Shown here: positions 1,703-36,342 of the stretch, piece after piece
How positions within the stretch are numbered: the first letter of the stretch is position 1
Layout: each line of letters begins with the position of its first letter
Virus record (IMG/VR): IMGVR_UViG_3300049199_000005
Coordinates: 1-36,449 of that record
Direction: 5' to 3' (one strand)
DNA: 36,449 nt
DNA from: a virus
Lineage: Duplodnaviria; Caudoviricetes
Program-made: the position numbers and the translations under genes
Notes under the pieces: generated by a model
What the model was told of the DNA's origin: nothing
Database searches by the model: none
Seen by the model: the letters and a program-made list of their open reading frames with translations, nothing else

Positions 1703-1815
1703 CGTATCGACGCTTCGCTTAGTGCGGGGCAACTGAAAAGAGTATTTTCCACCAAAATAAAACGAACATGAAAAAAAGTATAAAAGAAAATCCCGCATTA
1801 AGCGAAACGGCTTTT
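1701..1815. repeat. attC-like hairpin 0 (right box degenerate, TTT instead of GTT)
   Basis: AAC 1701; stem CGCTTCGCTTAGTGCGGG 1711-1728 / CCCGCATTAAGCGAAACG 1792-1809. Confidence 0.8.
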
Positions 1816-2028
1816 AGCAGTAGTGTTTCAATAGAAAACAACTTAACAGGCGTAGAGTTATTCTATAGAAGTCAAATAACTAATTGTTACACAAAATTCA
1901 AGGTTAAAGAAGTTATTTTAGTTACGGAAATAATTTCAAATTCAGTTTGTTTTTCGGTAGAACTAATTTCTGAAAATAATAATAAATATACTTACGAAGA
2001 AGATTTCATTTTCTCAGTAGTTACTTAA
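1768..2028 (+). CDS. Cassette 1 hypothetical protein (starts inside hairpin 0)
   Basis: 86 aa ORF; arms TTTAGCAGTAGTGTT 1813-1827 / AACATTACTGCTAAC 2027-2041. Confidence 0.65.
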   Translation: MKKSIKENPALSETAFSSSVSIENNLTGVELFYRSQITNCYTKFKVKEVILVTEIISNSVCFSVELISENNNKYTYEEDFIFSVVT

Positions 2029-2038
2029 CATTACTGCT

Positions 2039-2163
2039 AACGTTCCGCTAGTACAGCACGCTAGGGATAAGAAAGCGTAGTACTTTCCTATGTTACAAAT
2101 TAAAACAAATACAAAATAATATTAACCAAAAGCCATATGCCCTAGTGAGTTGTACTAGCTGTT
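2039..2163. repeat. attC-like hairpin 1
   Basis: AAC-GTTCC-GCTAGTACAGCACGCTAGGG ... CCCTAGTGAGTTGTACTAGC-T-GTT. Confidence 0.85.
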
Positions 2164-2192
2164 AGGGAATCGGCTTTTTAAAGACGACTATT

Positions 2193-2375
2193 ATGAAAAA
2201 AGAAGATTGGATAGATTATTCAAAAACAAAGCCAACAATAGGGCAAGAAGTTCTAGTTTTTAGAGATATTGAAAGCAGACAAAAATTTGTAACAAAATGG
2301 AGTGAAGAAGATGAAAAGTATGCTGATTGGAATGATATAACTTTTTGGATTCCAATTTTCGACCCTGTTGAGTAA
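2193..2375 (+). CDS. Cassette 2: DUF551-like small phage protein
   Basis: WIDYSKTKP..GQEVLV...ITFWIPI pattern; arms GTTAGGGAATCGGCTT / AAGCTGTTCCCTAAC. Confidence 0.65.
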   Translation: MKKEDWIDYSKTKPTIGQEVLVFRDIESRQKFVTKWSEEDEKYADWNDITFWIPIFDPVE

Positions 2376-2385
2376 GCTGTTCCCT

Positions 2386-2509
2386 AACGTTCCCACGCTT
2401 GGCGAAGAAGCGGACTTGAAAGCACAGACTTTATGTTTTGCACAAACGCCAATATGAAGCACGACTGTTCAATTTAGCACTAAACCCGCTTTTTTGCCAA
2501 ACGTGTGTT
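2386..2509. repeat. attC-like hairpin 2
   Basis: AAC-GTTCC-CACGCTTGGCGAAGAAGCGG ... CCGCTTTTTTGCCAAACGTG-T-GTT. Confidence 0.85.
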
Positions 2510-2554
2510 AGTGGCAGTTTTTTTTACGAATTATAAACTTTAAATAAATATAAA

Positions 2555-2872
2555 ATGTCAAACGCAAAAAAAGAATTAGAGAACTTGCTTGAAGGTAAAG
2601 CGAAAGTTAAATGTTCTAAAATAACTAAAGGTTATCAATATGATGACGAATACCAATGCCCCGAATATGTTTTAAAAATCAACCATTCAGAACAAGAATA
2701 CAATGATTTTTTAAAGTCATTAGATTTTGAATATGATAGTGGTTATGGTGGACAAGAATTATACGGAATTGTATGGTTAGAAGATGGTACTTGGTGTACT
2801 CGTGGCGAATATGATGGTTCTGAATGGTGGGAGCATAATGTTTTACCTACTATCCCTGCGGAGTGTCTGTAA
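2555..2872 (+). CDS. Cassette 3 hypothetical protein
   Basis: 105 aa, YDSGYGGQELYGIVWLEDGTW.TRGEYDGSEWW; arms GTTAGTGGCAGTTTT / AAAATTGCCACTAAC. Confidence 0.8.
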   Translation: MSNAKKELENLLEGKAKVKCSKITKGYQYDDEYQCPEYVLKINHSEQEYNDFLKSLDFEYDSGYGGQELYGIVWLEDGTWCTRGEYDGSEWWEHNVLPTIPAECL

Positions 2873-2882
2873 AATTGCCACT

Positions 2883-2950
2883 AACGCTAAAAATAACCGC
2901 AGTTTGCCTATGCAGTTAGTTGATTCGGCAAATTGTGGTTATTGATTGTT
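2883..2950. repeat. attC-like hairpin 3 (short-loop form, 68 bp)
   Basis: AATAACCGCAGTTTGCC 2892-2908 / GGCAAATTGTGGTTATT 2927-2943. Confidence 0.85.
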
Positions 2951-2987
2951 AGTATCCGTTTTTATCCACTAAATTTTAATTACAAAT

Positions 2988-3557
2988 ATGAAAAAATACA
3001 ATATAGTTTATGCAGACCCTGCTTGGAGTTTTGGAGATAAAATAAGAAGCTCAAAAAAGTTAGAAAATGGAAATATGCACTTTAGAGAATTAGAGTTACA
3101 TTATAATACAATGAAAACGCCTGAAATATGTGCCTTACCTGTAAAAGAAATAGTGGCTGATGATGCAGTACTATTTATGTGGACTACTGACGCACATTTA
3201 CCCGATGCTTTGCAAGTTATAGATGCTTGGGGTTTCAAATATAAAACAATAGCTTTTATATGGAATAAAAAAACCAACAAAGGAAATCAAGTTTGTTTTA
3301 TGGGTAAATGGACTATGAAAGGGAGTGAAATATGTTTACTTGCTACAAAAGGAAAAGCACACGGGTTAATTAAAAGTCACAAGGTAAGGCAACTTGTAGA
3401 AGCCGAAAGAGATATACATAGCCGAAAACCTGACGAAGTTAGAAATCGAATTGTAGAGTTATTAGGCGACTTGCCAAAAGTTGAATTGTTTTGCCGAACA
3501 CCTAAAGATGGTTGGGATGTTTGGGGAAATGAAGTCGTTAGCGATGTCGTTCTTTAA
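2988..3557 (+). CDS. Cassette 4: MT-A70 family adenine methyltransferase
   Basis: YNIVYADPAW, LFMWTT, WGFKYKT, HSRKP, ELF motifs; arms GTTAGTATCCGTTTT / AAAATGGCTACTAAC. Confidence 0.9.
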   Translation: MKKYNIVYADPAWSFGDKIRSSKKLENGNMHFRELELHYNTMKTPEICALPVKEIVADDAVLFMWTTDAHLPDALQVIDAWGFKYKTIAFIWNKKTNKGNQVCFMGKWTMKGSEICLLATKGKAHGLIKSHKVRQLVEAERDIHSRKPDEVRNRIVELLGDLPKVELFCRTPKDGWDVWGNEVVSDVVL

Positions 3558-3567
3558 AATGGCTACT

Positions 3568-3674
3568 AACGCTATATCGCTTTGCAAGGTAGCCGATAAG
3601 ATACTTAAGTACTGAAAATATAATAAGCGAGTATTTTCCACAGAGCATTGAGGCTATCATGCAAAGCGATTGTT
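3568..3674. repeat. attC-like hairpin 4
   Basis: AAC-GCTAT-ATCGCTTTGCAAGGTAGCC ... GGCTATCATGCAAAGCGAT-T-GTT. Confidence 0.85.
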
Positions 3675-3713
3675 ACCTGCTGTTTATTTTTTTTAATATT
3701 TTTTATAAAACGC

Positions 3714-3743
3714 TTGTTTATGTAAATATTAGTTGTATCTTTA
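3714..3743 (+). promoter_or_regulatory. Internal Bacteroidota-type promoter of cassette 5
   Basis: TTG-N19-TATCTTTA, close to the -33/-7 consensus. Confidence 0.55.
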
Positions 3744-3770
3744 CATCATAGAAATAAACAAATAGAAATT

Positions 3771-3920
3771 ATGAAAGCTAAAAAAATAACAATCGAAATA
3801 GGATTTGAAAACGAATTAGTATTTGTTACTTTTAAAAATGAAGACGTTTATAAAGCAATTAAAAAAGTAGAAAAAGAATATAAAGGTTCTATTATATATG
3901 ATGTAAAAACAGAATATTAA
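3771..3920 (+). CDS. Cassette 5 ORF A (49 aa), hypothetical
   Basis: Read by hand: MKAKKITIEIGFENELVFVTF...; A-rich leader. Confidence 0.6.
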   Translation: MKAKKITIEIGFENELVFVTFKNEDVYKAIKKVEKEYKGSIIYDVKTEY

Positions 3921-4024
3921 CTAAATCCAAGGTGCGACTGTAACGCACTATTTTATATGGAAGATATTTTAGAATCATCAAATAAATATGATATTTTGGA
4001 TTGTATGAATTTTGAATGTTAATT

Positions 4025-4195
4025 ATGCAAAGAAAAAATATAATAATATTGATCCAACCCCTTAGCGAACCAATTGCAAGGGGTAATTTTAAAAAGTTAT
4101 GTGATGAATTTAATTTACCTTACCATAGCTTAAAAATGTTAAAATTTCCAATTACCTACAAAGATTCGATTATTTACAAAGTCGAGTTTAAATAG
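4025..4195 (+). CDS. Cassette 5 ORF B (56 aa), possible small DNA-binding protein
   Basis: Read by hand: MQRKNIIILIQ...GNFKKLCDEFNLPYHSLK...; stop lies in arm TAAATAGCAGGTAAC, which pairs with GTTACCTGCTGTTTA. Confidence 0.6.
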   Translation: MQRKNIIILIQPLSEPIARGNFKKLCDEFNLPYHSLKMLKFPITYKDSIIYKVEFK

Positions 4196-4200
4196 CAGGT

Positions 4201-4324
4201 AACGTTGAGCATAACGCTAGTTACGGACTAAATAAGCCGAAACATTCAGATTAAAAACCGTATCACTGATACAAACTAAAATATAAATTAAAGACCGATG
4301 CCGTAATTAGTGTTATGCATTGTT
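4201..4324. repeat. attC-like hairpin 5
   Basis: GCATAACGCTAGTTACGG 4209-4226 / CCGTAATTAGTGTTATGC 4301-4318. Confidence 0.85.
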
Positions 4325-4353
4325 AGCGGTTCGGTTTTATAAAACTAAACAAG

Positions 4354-4554
4354 ATGGACAAAGAACACAAAATGAATTGTAATAAATGCGGTCAAGAATT
4401 TGATATGAGAGATTTAAGTCAGGTTTTCGCTCACGAACCCTGTGATGGAGAATGGGTTGATTACTCTAAATTAGAAAAAATAAATAAAACTGCTCAAGAA
4501 ATAGGCAGTCCAATTCTTCACGTGATTGGTAAAGGCGAGGTTTCTTTAAACTGA
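4354..4554 (+). CDS. Cassette 6: small CxxC-containing protein
   Basis: CNKC...HEPC possible Zn site; arms GTTAGCGGTTCGGTTT / AAACTGACCGCTAAC. Confidence 0.7.
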   Translation: MDKEHKMNCNKCGQEFDMRDLSQVFAHEPCDGEWVDYSKLEKINKTAQEIGSPILHVIGKGEVSLN

Positions 4555-4559
4555 CCGCT

Positions 4560-4687
4560 AACGTTATCTCGCTTTGTGACTGTTACGGCACTAAGCGAAC
4601 TGTAATTTTTCGGCTACCGAAAAACGTGAACGTAACAACAAAACTTAATATTAAATAAAATTGCCGTAATAGCGCAAAACGAGTGTT
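4560..4687. repeat. attC-like hairpin 6
   Basis: AAC-GTTAT-CTCGCTTTGTGACTGTTACGGCA ... TGCCGTAATAGCGCAAAACGAG-T-GTT. Confidence 0.85.
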
Positions 4688-4714
4688 AGTGGCATACCAC
4701 GTAAAACTTTTAAA

Positions 4715-5041
4715 ATGAAAAGACAAAGCTTAGGATGTATTTCTCATGCATCAAAAACAAATAAATATCAGGCAGTTTTTCACGATATTCTAATTAATAA
4801 GCCTAAACATTTAGGTTTTTATAATTCTAAGTTAGAAGCACAAGAAAAAATTGATTCCTACATATTTGATTACTACTCGATTAATAAATTTCTTTTGCCC
4901 AAGGGAATTTGTTTTGATTCAAAAAGCAGAACATTTATCTATAGAATATCTATCAAAGAAAAAAGGCATAGAGTGTTTTATTCTAAAAATTTAAAAGAGG
5001 TTATTGAGTTTCGATTAAATTTTATAAGAAATCTAATTTAA
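4715..5041 (+). CDS. Cassette 7: AP2-like DNA-binding domain protein
   Basis: KYQAVF...KHLGFYNSKLEA and LPKGI...FIYRISI resemble tandem AP2-like domains. Confidence 0.55.
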   Translation: MKRQSLGCISHASKTNKYQAVFHDILINKPKHLGFYNSKLEAQEKIDSYIFDYYSINKFLLPKGICFDSKSRTFIYRISIKEKRHRVFYSKNLKEVIEFRLNFIRNLI

Positions 5042-5072
5042 TTATATATCCTTATTCTAGGCGGTTGACACT

Positions 5073-5195
5073 AACGTATCGGTGCTATACGATGTGGCGG
5101 CTTTTCAGCAGAAATCCCAATACGAAGCACCAAAGTTGAATTAAGTAAAATGTTTAATCGAAGCACGTCAGCCGCCATATTGTATAGCACTTGTT
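5073..5195. repeat. attC-like hairpin 7
   Basis: GTGCTATACGATGTGGCGGCT 5082-5102 / AGCCGCCATATTGTATAGCAC 5170-5190. Confidence 0.85.
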
Positions 5196-5227
5196 AGCGG
5201 CTGCCATTCTTCACAAAGAAAAATAAA

Positions 5228-5515
5228 ATGGACAAAATAAACATCCTTAACAAAGTTGGCTTACTTACAGCCGAAGACAGAAAAGCACCTTTACAACACG
5301 GTTGCGATTACTTCACATTTGAAACTTGCTTGGATTTGTCAGAGCCAATAAAGGTTATACCTTACGGAGACCCAACTGAAGTAAGCTTGCAAATTTATTC
5401 AAGAGATATAGCAAGTTTCATTTGCTGGTGGACACATTTTGTCAAAAAAGATTTGAATGGTTTTAGCGGATTTTCTCACGTCAAATTTGAGCCTGTTGGG
5501 TTCGTGGTCGTTTAG
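5228..5515 (+). CDS. Cassette 8 hypothetical protein
   Basis: 95 aa ORF; arms GTTAGCGGCTGCC / GGTTGCCGCTAAC. Confidence 0.7.
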   Translation: MDKINILNKVGLLTAEDRKAPLQHGCDYFTFETCLDLSEPIKVIPYGDPTEVSLQIYSRDIASFICWWTHFVKKDLNGFSGFSHVKFEPVGFVVV

Positions 5516-5547
5516 GGTTGCCGCTAACTATTGGCTAACACTTATAA

Positions 5548-5742
5548 ATGTATTACACTATGGCTAAAATACTTGTAAAAACAAAAGTTATACGTATAAC
5601 TCAGACACAATACGATACTCTAAAAAAGATGCAAAGTTATAATATTGATGTAGGTAATTTTATAAGAGTTGCAATAGCTGAAAAAATAAAAAGGGATCAT
5701 AAAGATTTGATCCCTAAACCAAAATCAAAAACTCCATTTTAA
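5548..5742 (+). CDS. Ribbon-helix-helix-like DNA-binding protein (start possibly 5560)
   Basis: KTKVIRIT strand followed by two helices (QTQYDTLKKM; VGNFIRVAIAEKI). Confidence 0.55.
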   Translation: MYYTMAKILVKTKVIRITQTQYDTLKKMQSYNIDVGNFIRVAIAEKIKRDHKDLIPKPKSKTPF

Positions 5743-12664: not shown

Positions 12665-13165
12665 TCATTTTATGTGTTTATAAGCCTTGTAATTTTTTAT
12701 TTTACATACAACTGAACTAGAAATATTGAATTTTTTGCCTAAAAATCTTGTAGATTCATTGGATTCTCTTATTTCTTTTATTTCATATTCTTTTAATCTT
12801 GTTTTAATTAAACCTAATGCTACTGCGTGAGTAGTATTTTCTGAATTTGTAACCCATTCTAAATTTTCTGCTCTATTATCCGTTTTTATTCCGTTGATAT
12901 GGTTTACTAAAGGCTTATTATCTGTATTTTCAATAAAAGCGTTAGCTACTAACCTATTAACCCTAAAAGTATATCTAACAGAATCTTTTCTTAACCCTAT
13001 CTTCATATATCCGTCAACACCTATCCTTTGATTTTTTAAAACCGCTTTTTGAACACGAAATCCACCTTTATAGTGTTTTATTTGCCTTTCAACCCCTCTA
13101 ATATTCCCAAGATTGCTAACCTCATATAAATTTTCAAAACCAATAACTTTTTTCCAAATTTCCAT
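12665..13165 (-). CDS. NUMOD4-HNH homing endonuclease
   Basis: MEIWKKVIGFENLYEVSNLG (NUMOD4); VNHINGIKTDNRAENLEWVT..EN (HNH); ATG at 13165 preferred. Confidence 0.9.
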   Translation of the reverse strand: MEIWKKVIGFENLYEVSNLGNIRGVERQIKHYKGGFRVQKAVLKNQRIGVDGYMKIGLRKDSVRYTFRVNRLVANAFIENTDNKPLVNHINGIKTDNRAENLEWVTNSENTTHAVALGLIKTRLKEYEIKEIRESNESTRFLGKKFNISSSVVCKIKNYKAYKHIK

Positions 13166-13222
13166 AAAATAAACTTTTATGTAAATATAGCTATTTGTTA
13201 GCAATTAAACAACACCTTTATG

Positions 13223-35366: not shown

Positions 35367-35663
35367 TTAGAAAGGCAAATCGTCTGCACTCGGAATATCA
35401 GAATTGTTTTCTTCTAGTGGTTTTGGTGCTTGTTGTTCGCTTAGTTTTAAATTACCAAAATAAATTTTATCTTCTTTAGAAGCATCTTTAAAAGATGTTT
35501 GGATACTTGCATCGTTACCGTATTGGTCTTTAGTATCGTTTATCCATACATTTAAGTTTAAATAAATTTTACCGTTTTCTGCCTTTGAAAATGCTTTATT
35601 TCCTGATTTTGCTAATTCTAATAATTTTGAGAAGTCGATGCTTCCGTAAAGTAATTTGCTCAT
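35367..35663 (-). CDS. SSB-like protein
   Basis: GKIYLNL...DQYGN...YFGN; acidic C-terminal DDLPF tail. Confidence 0.7.
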   Translation of the reverse strand: MSKLLYGSIDFSKLLELAKSGNKAFSKAENGKIYLNLNVWINDTKDQYGNDASIQTSFKDASKEDKIYFGNLKLSEQQAPKPLEENNSDIPSADDLPF

Positions 35664-35664
35664 T

Positions 35665-36342
35665 TTATTTAATTTGTGTTAATAATTCTTTTTCAATATA
35701 TTCTCTAACTTGTAAAACCCTTTCTTCTGCTTTTTTTATAAAATCAGCATCATACTCAAATTCAAAAACTTTTATCCTTAAATTATCTGATAAATGATCG
35801 TAGCTAAGTTGTTTTTCTGCTTCTTCCCATTCTTCAATATCGGGTTCATCTTTTTCTAACTCTTTTGCTATTTTCCAAGATAAACGCTCTATTTGTTCGT
35901 CACTTCCATTCTCTAGGCAATAAACCAAACTAGCTTTTTTTAAACCTGTTAAGCGCATATAAATTTGAAGTTGACCGTAATAATCAGAATCAATGTTTTC
36001 TGCAAAAAATGGAAACGTAAACGCATCGAAAGGAACTTTTGTATCAATTACTCTTTCAGTATTTCGAGCGTCAAAAGTACCTGTAAAAAAATCATTTTCT
36101 AAATTAATATCATTTTTTACGAGTTCGCAATTGTAATACTTTGCAACTCGATTAATTGCGCTTTGCTCCATTGCGTTACCTCTTTCAAGATACTTTGATT
36201 TTATATCTTTTTCTTTACCTGTTATTTGCGAAATTAACCATTCTTTAGCGTATGTTTTAGCAGTTTCTCCCATTACTTTACCGCTACGATCATTGGTTAA
36301 TATTTTACCAATTTGCGATGCTCTACATTTAAACTGTTTCAT
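35665..36342 (-). CDS. YqaJ/lambda-exonuclease-like recombination nuclease
   Basis: RASQIG, RGNAME, TGTFD, IDTK, YYGQLQIYM. Confidence 0.85.
   Translation of the reverse strand: MKQFKCRASQIGKILTNDRSGKVMGETAKTYAKEWLISQITGKEKDIKSKYLERGNAMEQSAINRVAKYYNCELVKNDINLENDFFTGTFDARNTERVIDTKVPFDAFTFPFFAENIDSDYYGQLQIYMRLTGLKKASLVYCLENGSDEQIERLSWKIAKELEKDEPDIEEWEEAEKQLSYDHLSDNLRIKVFEFEYDADFIKKAEERVLQVREYIEKELLTQIK

Follow-up and report, generated by a model that had tools for sequence, protein, structure and literature searches.

A scarcely described integron-like cassette system of Bacteroidota and their phages, seen in an eight-unit array of a viral genome

The virus record IMGVR_UViG_3300049199_000005 (36,449 bases, analyzed whole and hereafter called the window) carries on its + strand a tandem array of eight units, C1 to C8, each headed by a hairpin and flanked by a pair of self-complementary arms, and the array ends in a fixed site that has no hairpin. 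This feature is real and well supported, and the integron-like system to which it belongs, common to Bacteroidota and their phages, has scarcely been described. The units are very probably mobile cassettes, and in a folded single-stranded DNA (ssDNA) site, which a host Xer-like tyrosine recombinase would cut within AAC, their paired 15-base ends likely make up the outer binding box. A literature search found no description of this cassette system; subscription papers and supplements (e.g., Table S13 of PMC7077304) may bear on it.

Comparison of loci shows that a unit reads AAC-hairpin-GTTA-arm-gene-arm-T. Once a unit is excised as a circle, folding of its coding strand would create two pseudo-symmetric boxes, one from the unit's own arms and the other from the inner stem; in both, an invariant T takes part in a T·G wobble. 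Insertion of the circle would take place where the array ends downstream, at the fixed terminal site, so that every junction is a hybrid in which one unit contributes its arm and the following unit its hairpin and arm. Viewed on the opposite strand, this is an integron layout with every open reading frame (ORF) inverted.

A hairpin detector applied to the window recovered the eight sites plus one weak match on the + strand and one weak match on the - strand, against a background of no sites in five 12-kb resamples. Two elements had escaped the original prediction, which was made from the sequence of the window: a further (eighth) hairpin that heads C1 (1700-1816) and reads TTTA, a decayed form, in place of GTTA, and the terminal site at 5525-5559, which has no hairpin. 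No hairpin follows C8.

Unit ends, boundaries, and mobility

According to the original prediction, the GTTA arm before each gene pairs with the TAAC arm after the same gene, and all eight predicted arm pairs were found in place. Over arm positions 5 to 16 (maximum, 12), the cognate arms of C1 to C8 make 10, 7, 10, 9, 10, 8, 7, and 8 Watson-Crick matches, compared with 3, 4, 7, 5, 4, 3, and 5 across the seven junctions. Among the 40,320 permutations, matching each unit with itself scores highest (p = 1/40,320), and it does so for positions 8 to 16 alone as well. Arms facing each other across one array hairpin pair continuously over 4 to 6 bp, as had been claimed, and the fold check that had been proposed, in-silico circles versus array junctions, favored the circle by 3.6 to 9.1 kcal/mol on the coding strand in seven of seven cases.

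The arm was profiled in 290 distinct phage units lying between adjacent hairpins, with arm pairing playing no part in their selection. It is 15 bp long and has its T·G wobble at position 11: Watson-Crick pairing is 0.89 to 0.91 at positions 5 to 8 and 0.82 and 0.65 at positions 9 and 10, position 11 is an invariant T facing G (wobble, 0.75), positions 12 to 15 pair at 0.68 to 0.80, and the background level is reached from position 16. Cognate pairing exceeds junction pairing in 267 of these units; the junction values track shuffled values, and junction boxes are mismatched at about 65% of positions 6 to 10. The inner stem, which has an invariant A at -7 and an invariant T at -15, repeats the wobble of the arm (the T faces G in 219 of 258 hairpins), and all eight window sites keep the invariants. 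Compensatory change is seen at 12 of 18 consensus stem pairs among 46 aligned sites. Covariation of the arms in 24 pairs (48 compensated, 2 not, and 14 one-sided) is given little weight, because units were called at 7 or more of 11 arm matches and the count is biased by that threshold.

The two T-N7-A motifs, one in the arm and one in the inner stem, are pseudo-symmetric about the center, arranged as two recombinase boxes would be. Because of the arm length and the wobble repeated in the inner stem, the arms probably represent the outer recombinase box, which is whole only when a unit's two ends are brought together; the two-box pattern is plain in the sites, and a recombinase would presumably bind both boxes. 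Pairing of the base that precedes AAC is with its own unit (0.98 versus 0.59), and the base after AAC is G in hairpins and T in terminal sites. Since the preceding base goes with the gene's arm and the following base with the hairpin or terminal site, the crossover falls within AAC, and the exact bond may be AA|C, as the integron crossover lies between A and C (PMC7439510). In attC sites, G·T pairs favor or mark the recombined strand (PMC5027507), so the wobbles point to the coding strand as the putative substrate here.

It had also been proposed that the junctions are hybrid recombination products and that units move singly, and both points were upheld by comparison of near-identical units and by C4. 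Among 108 near-identical unit pairs from all fetched loci (not independent of each other, and called at the threshold given above), the upstream hairpin is retained in 106, and in 36 the neighbor on one or both sides is another unit; where the upstream neighbor differs, the hairpin is kept in 20 of 21 pairs. Hairpin swaps make up 2 of the 108 pairs, and chimeric hairpins also occur. The cultured arrays of Muminvirus, Hattifnattvirus, and Unahavirus show one hairpin-plus-gene behind differing upstream arms, and the difference between mumin6-1 and mumin6-3 is a 506-nt unit with its break inside a shared TAACGTT. The breaks are located in a core of 4 to 7 nt that joins otherwise unlike sequences. 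The proposed C4 unit (2886-3570) was correct, and the check that had been suggested, to look for the same gene beside other neighbors, succeeded in locus L125, where C4 is 92.9% identical from base 2882 and both neighbors are changed. Contigs of runs X12 and X3 tile 2882-3571 with few mismatches, and the next hairpin (3578-3648) is uncovered in the four sequencing runs examined for it. C4 occurs in other samples with other neighbors.

Two further observations concern the arms. In a C5-like left arm, the near-identical isolates mumin6-1 and mumin6-3 (L086 and L088) show three adjacent base differences by which a nonmatching arm comes to match the right arm of its unit; this hints at templated correction of the arm or at mosaic exchange. 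Very short geneless units with paired arms, about 29 nt from the hairpin to the next TAAC, occur in L199, L215, L187, and L100 as empty frames.

Terminal site and recombinase

The terminal site (5525..5559, + strand) begins with TAAC-TA..., followed by a conserved TGTATTACA box. A single terminal sequence stands behind three different last units in five cultured phages, and identical units are found either before the terminal site or before another hairpin; we infer that the site is an attI-like entry site. C8 is likely the newest unit because it adjoins this site. The TGTATTACA palindrome at 5548-5557, a possible operator, lies immediately 5' of the start codon of an RHH-like gene and is 94 to 99% conserved in 69 terminal sites.

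The RHH-like gene (5560..5742, + strand; 60 aa; phrog_25647) occupies the place that the recombinase takes in other phages. A hairpin lies within 1.6 kb upstream of its homologs at 63 of 70 loci. The structure model of the protein has two helices (pLDDT 79), and Foldseek gave six rows, all with E > 5, including Reg576, ParB, and ParD2. A tyrosine or serine recombinase was detected in none of the six frames of the window with PF00589 or PF00239 (controls positive in 14 and 13 of 14 genomes). The recombinase of the other phages is encoded in none of the 37 RHH-platform records, 19 of which are near-complete.

In an alternative platform, the fixed terminal site precedes a 266-aa Xer-like tyrosine recombinase (P0121). 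Where the flank of a phage recombinase locus is long enough, a hairpin is present in the 1.6 kb upstream in 54 of 57 cases and downstream in 1 of 80. By strand, 521 sites lie with the platform gene and 3 opposite to it; the loci of C3 homologs, taken for comparison, hold 4 sites in 601 kb. The enzyme keeps the catalytic residues, lacks the 44-aa insertion (I2) of IntI1, scores 150 on TIGR02249 (cutoff, 265), and falls below every NCBIfam cutoff; judged by its sequence, it constitutes a separate family that is neither XerC nor XerD. It is encoded in 74 of 121 genomes of a Flavobacterium-centered genus sample (the genus of G001; L301), and a site lies within 1.5 kb at 12 of 19 chromosomal recombinase loci with at least 1 kb of flank. 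The strict ungapped site finder misses most chromosomal sites, and the counts rest on its replacement. The chromosomal arrays have the same arms (14 bp, wobble at 11), and 46 of their 55 ORFs are antisense to site polarity, whereas 243 of 245 ORFs in phage units are sense. At L302, L345, L314, and L357-L386, the chromosomal recombinase gene is at the terminal-site end and points away from or toward the array; some genomes hold two loci of recombinase plus array, and the predominant hairpin lengths are about 126 and 190 nt.

The phage has no such recombinase of its own and likely borrows that of its host. CTXphi similarly borrows host XerCD, a tyrosine recombinase without an I2 domain, for folded ssDNA (PMC4792948); there, however, the whole phage integrates at dif, whereas here gene-sized units are shuffled and the enzyme is neither XerC nor XerD.

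Several points weigh against mobile cassettes that are handled by a host enzyme. The folded strand and the AA|C cut are drawn by analogy, and action of the recombinase on the sites is predicted. Arm pairing does not decay with array rank from the terminal site (means, 8.3, 8.2, 8.6, 7.8, and 8.1), and insertion polarity therefore gets no support from decay. Forty-seven of the 121 genomes yielded no recombinase, and 7 of the 19 chromosomal loci yielded no site. The window terminal site differs from the recombinase-linked consensus at c7-c8 and c11, so use of the host enzyme is putative. Neither circle back-joints nor excision was seen in contigs of eight runs, contigs being prone to drop rare forms. 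Finally, several of the compared phages are sister isolates, and the phage set supplied the training data for the polar site finder.

Alternative explanations and relation to integrons

An extension compatible with excised circles is that the arms act in the array too. On ssDNA, they would pair across the gene, and together with both inner stems they would set up a four-way junction in advance; excision would follow when the recombinase resolves it. We hold this to be possible but doubtful. The original prediction had a full-length hairpin form only in the excised circle, which is not borne out: with the inner stems intact, the array coding strand is predicted to pair cognate arms across the gene with a probability of at least 0.6 in six of the eight units, so the circle need not be the sole meeting place. 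The mismatched array junction boxes would be poor substrates as simple hairpins, and the undiminished arm quality along arrays also fits. Yet equilibrium folding of 500 to 800 nt is rough, the template strand likewise reaches at least 0.6 in six of eight units, C4 fails on both strands, and IntI is generally known to excise through hybrid attC sites without such a junction.

It is improbable that no site-specific enzyme takes part and that the genes are shuffled by the phage's recombination proteins, with repeated hairpins providing the short homology. The PeSL cassettes of T4-type phages are hairpin-headed small early-gene units that shuffle among phages, and short-homology shuffling has been proposed for them; we know of no self-complementary unit ends, entry site, or linked recombinase in PeSL cassettes. 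Such an origin would suit a phage that lacks a tyrosine or serine recombinase and yet has an exonuclease and a RusA-like gene, the missing recombinase of all RHH-platform records, and the swapped and chimeric hairpins, but the breaks are confined to the short core between otherwise unlike sequences, and the self-complementary arms, invariant wobbles, strand polarity, recombinase link, and fixed terminal site would all be left unexplained.

Marginally weaker still is the proposal that these are ordinary integron cassettes in an integrase-less array (CALIN) moved by an IntI integrase. CALINs with methyltransferases have been reported in virulent phages (Qi et al. 2023; PMC9892861), and one site called attC there, P12002L_attC1 of Polaribacter phage P12002L, has the TAAC-G...T-GTTA form of the present family. 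In the accessible text of that paper, however, the sites are treated as classical attC, and arms, terminal site, recombinase family, and inverted polarity are not described. The same text reports the P12002L site, assayed with short flanks, as the sole one of six not recombined by IntI1. Our site finder gave three sites of this family on the minus strand of the P12002L genome, and the short P12002L_attC1 was not among them. The TAAC/GTTA cores, the hairpins of about 126 nt, and own-end pairing like that of class 1 cassettes agree with CALINs; the absence of the IntI insertion from the linked enzyme, its low TIGR02249 score, and a stem with conserved wobbles in place of extrahelical bases do not. 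By the CALIN definition of at least two attC sites without IntI, the window indeed has no IntI, and its sites are not classical attC.

Arms about twice the classical 7-bp R box had been regarded as distinctive, which did not survive comparison with class 1 integrons. Plasmid-borne integrons (L351-L354) yielded 14 parsed cassettes, some with related genes, and L355 and L356 gave no further cassette; two of the 14 (oxa10, aadA1) were misparsed, with an attI-like stretch replacing that attC. Own-end matches at positions 8 to 12 numbered 49 of 70 over the 14 cassettes, a value reached by none of 100,000 shuffles, and 9 of the 12 correctly parsed cassettes self-pair over 11 to 13 bp. Own-end pairing past 7 bp is therefore common to integrons, and it is the extra 2 to 3 bp and the wobble that differ; given class 1 self-pairing to about 12 bp, the arm length is less surprising than had been thought. 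A literature search returned no statement of own-end pairing of about 12 bp in class 1 cassettes; older subscription papers may report it.

Overall, the system works like an integron and falls outside that class by its integrase and attC structure. Shared with integrons are tandem units, an AAC/GTT crossover core with unit boundaries at the core, strand-polar hairpins, outer boxes that are hybrid in the array, own-end pairing beyond 7 bp, a fixed entry site adjoining a tyrosine recombinase gene, and, in chromosomal arrays, the classical gene orientation. The attI counterpart is a fixed, hairpin-free site with a varying last unit; in the window it adjoins the RHH-like gene, which replaces the integrase gene in one phage platform, and its role in entry is presumed. 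In contrast to integrons, the recombinase has no I2-type IntI insertion, which in IntI is near the C-terminus, and no IntI is present in the window; the arms are 14 to 15 bp long, their invariant T·G wobble recurs in the inner stem, and the central bulge is asymmetric. Whereas attC has RYYYAAC/GTTRRRY, positions 5 to 10 are free here, with 5 to 7 not RRR, and conserved T·G wobbles stand where attC extrahelical bases would be expected. In phages, gene-then-attC order is replaced by inverted ORFs with a hairpin heading the gene (106/108 pairs; 243/245 ORFs) and a promoter-distal entry. Signs of folded single-strand recombination are limited to the strand-polar wobbles and covariation.

Least credible of all is that the arms and hairpins work in the early transcript, as stems with G·U pairs for RNA processing or stability, since chromosomal arrays carry the same polarity on the template strand and so argue against an mRNA-level role, even though the better-folding strand in phages is the mRNA strand; precise unit shuffling would also be unexplained, and Rfam covariance models gave no match to the region at gathering score (best E, 0.21). 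The Flavo-1 RNA motif was considered and rejected, as the Flavo-1 sequences available from a supplement differ from these sites.

Refilled frames, cargo, and neighboring genes

Contrary to the earlier view that the arms are private to each cassette, 373 of 425 unit pairs with both arms in common have unrelated interiors. Left arms are shared by 594 pairs, compared with 59 to 94 in column shuffles, and 44 frame families among 316 single-ORF units contain two to six unrelated ORF families. When 231 pairs were picked on the left arm alone, unpaired right-arm bases were identical at 247 of 299 positions versus 334 of 1,360 in random pairs, so far above random that the frames are related by descent. 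In 51 long-leader pairs, identity falls from 0.62 upstream of the ATG (0.47 at random) to 0.44 downstream of it (0.41 at random), and with one pair per family the upstream value is the higher one in 13 of 20. In 20 long-trailer pairs, the sequence past the stop is 0.76 identical (0.34 at random) and the sequence ahead of the stop is 0.49 identical (0.32 at random). These sequence comparisons indicate that whole frames are refilled with unrelated ORFs roughly from ATG to stop, with limits that are nearly ORF-precise but not sharp. New units likely arise by placement of a new ORF into an existing frame, from about the ATG to the stop, and ordinary recombination filtered by selection could be the source of the pattern.

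No reliable model exists for cassette genesis in integrons (PMC4792948). Refilling is common here, and the cultured phage-host pairs make cassette genesis testable. We also put forward, tentatively, a second integron-like system, I2-less and shared between Bacteroidota and the phages of these bacteria, that acts on folded single strands through 15-bp wobble-marked boxes, builds cassettes from frames refilled from start to stop, and uses its arms to pre-form the excision junction. If true, refilled frames and such arms would offer a visible route of cassette genesis, and an I2-less enzyme handling folded single strands would inform integrase evolution. Scans with IntegronFinder 2.0 found very few integrons in Bacteroidetes (PMC9024848); despite these nearly empty standard scans, the recombinase is widespread in one genus, and many phages of these bacteria carry cassettes. 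The cargo includes DNA methyltransferases, and in muminphages a methyltransferase difference tracks plating efficiency (PMC7077304); the system may therefore be a route by which phages retune anti-restriction genes.

All units lie on the + strand, within a rightward-pointing block of small genes whose closest cultured matches are Flavobacterium phages. C1 (1700..2041; left arm from 1813, right arm to 2041) has no convincing ORF and is the most distant from the entry site. Just upstream, the stop codon of an ORF at 1457-1702 is the TAA of the first hairpin's TAAC, with a T at arm position 11; this ORF may be what is left of an older unit after decay, or may mark a secondary site of insertion. 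C2 (2038..2388; 127-nt hairpin) has a 60-aa ORF at 2193-2375, and its frame, with its arms, holds an unrelated ORF in L140; together with C6 and C8, it is a clear case of refilling. C3 (2385..2885; 126-nt hairpin) encodes 105 aa at 2555-2872 (phrog_3972); 79 of 80 viral homologs have no upstream hairpin, and it is therefore an ordinary gene family captured in this lineage. C4 (2882..3570; 70-nt hairpin) carries an MT-A70-family DNA methyltransferase at 2988-3557. C5 (3567..4203; 109-nt hairpin) contains short ORFs behind a leader with a TAnnTTT(A) promoter-like box at 3736, and its homolog in cultured muminphages has compensated arms. The box, a Bacteroidetes-type -7 promoter box within 3700-3745, is common to the muminphage homologs, so some units may bring their own promoter.

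C6 (4200..4562; 126-nt hairpin) has a 66-aa ORF at 4354-4554 with a weak zinc-ribbon match and shares its frame with an unrelated ORF in L161. C7 (4559..5075; 130-nt hairpin), whose arms are the weakest of the array, has a 108-aa ORF at 4715-5041 with a weak HNH-family match. C8 (5072..5528; 125-nt hairpin) has a 95-aa ORF at 5228-5515, and its leader length and trailer recur around unrelated ORFs in L278 and L136.

Elsewhere, the window has terminase, endolysin, primase-helicase, and exonuclease genes. At 15-533 and 35367-36342, a conserved phage protein adjoins the exonuclease and a small SSB-like gene, and these genes could form a recombination module. An HNH endonuclease gene (12665-13204) is located within the head-gene block, adjoining the presumed portal gene.

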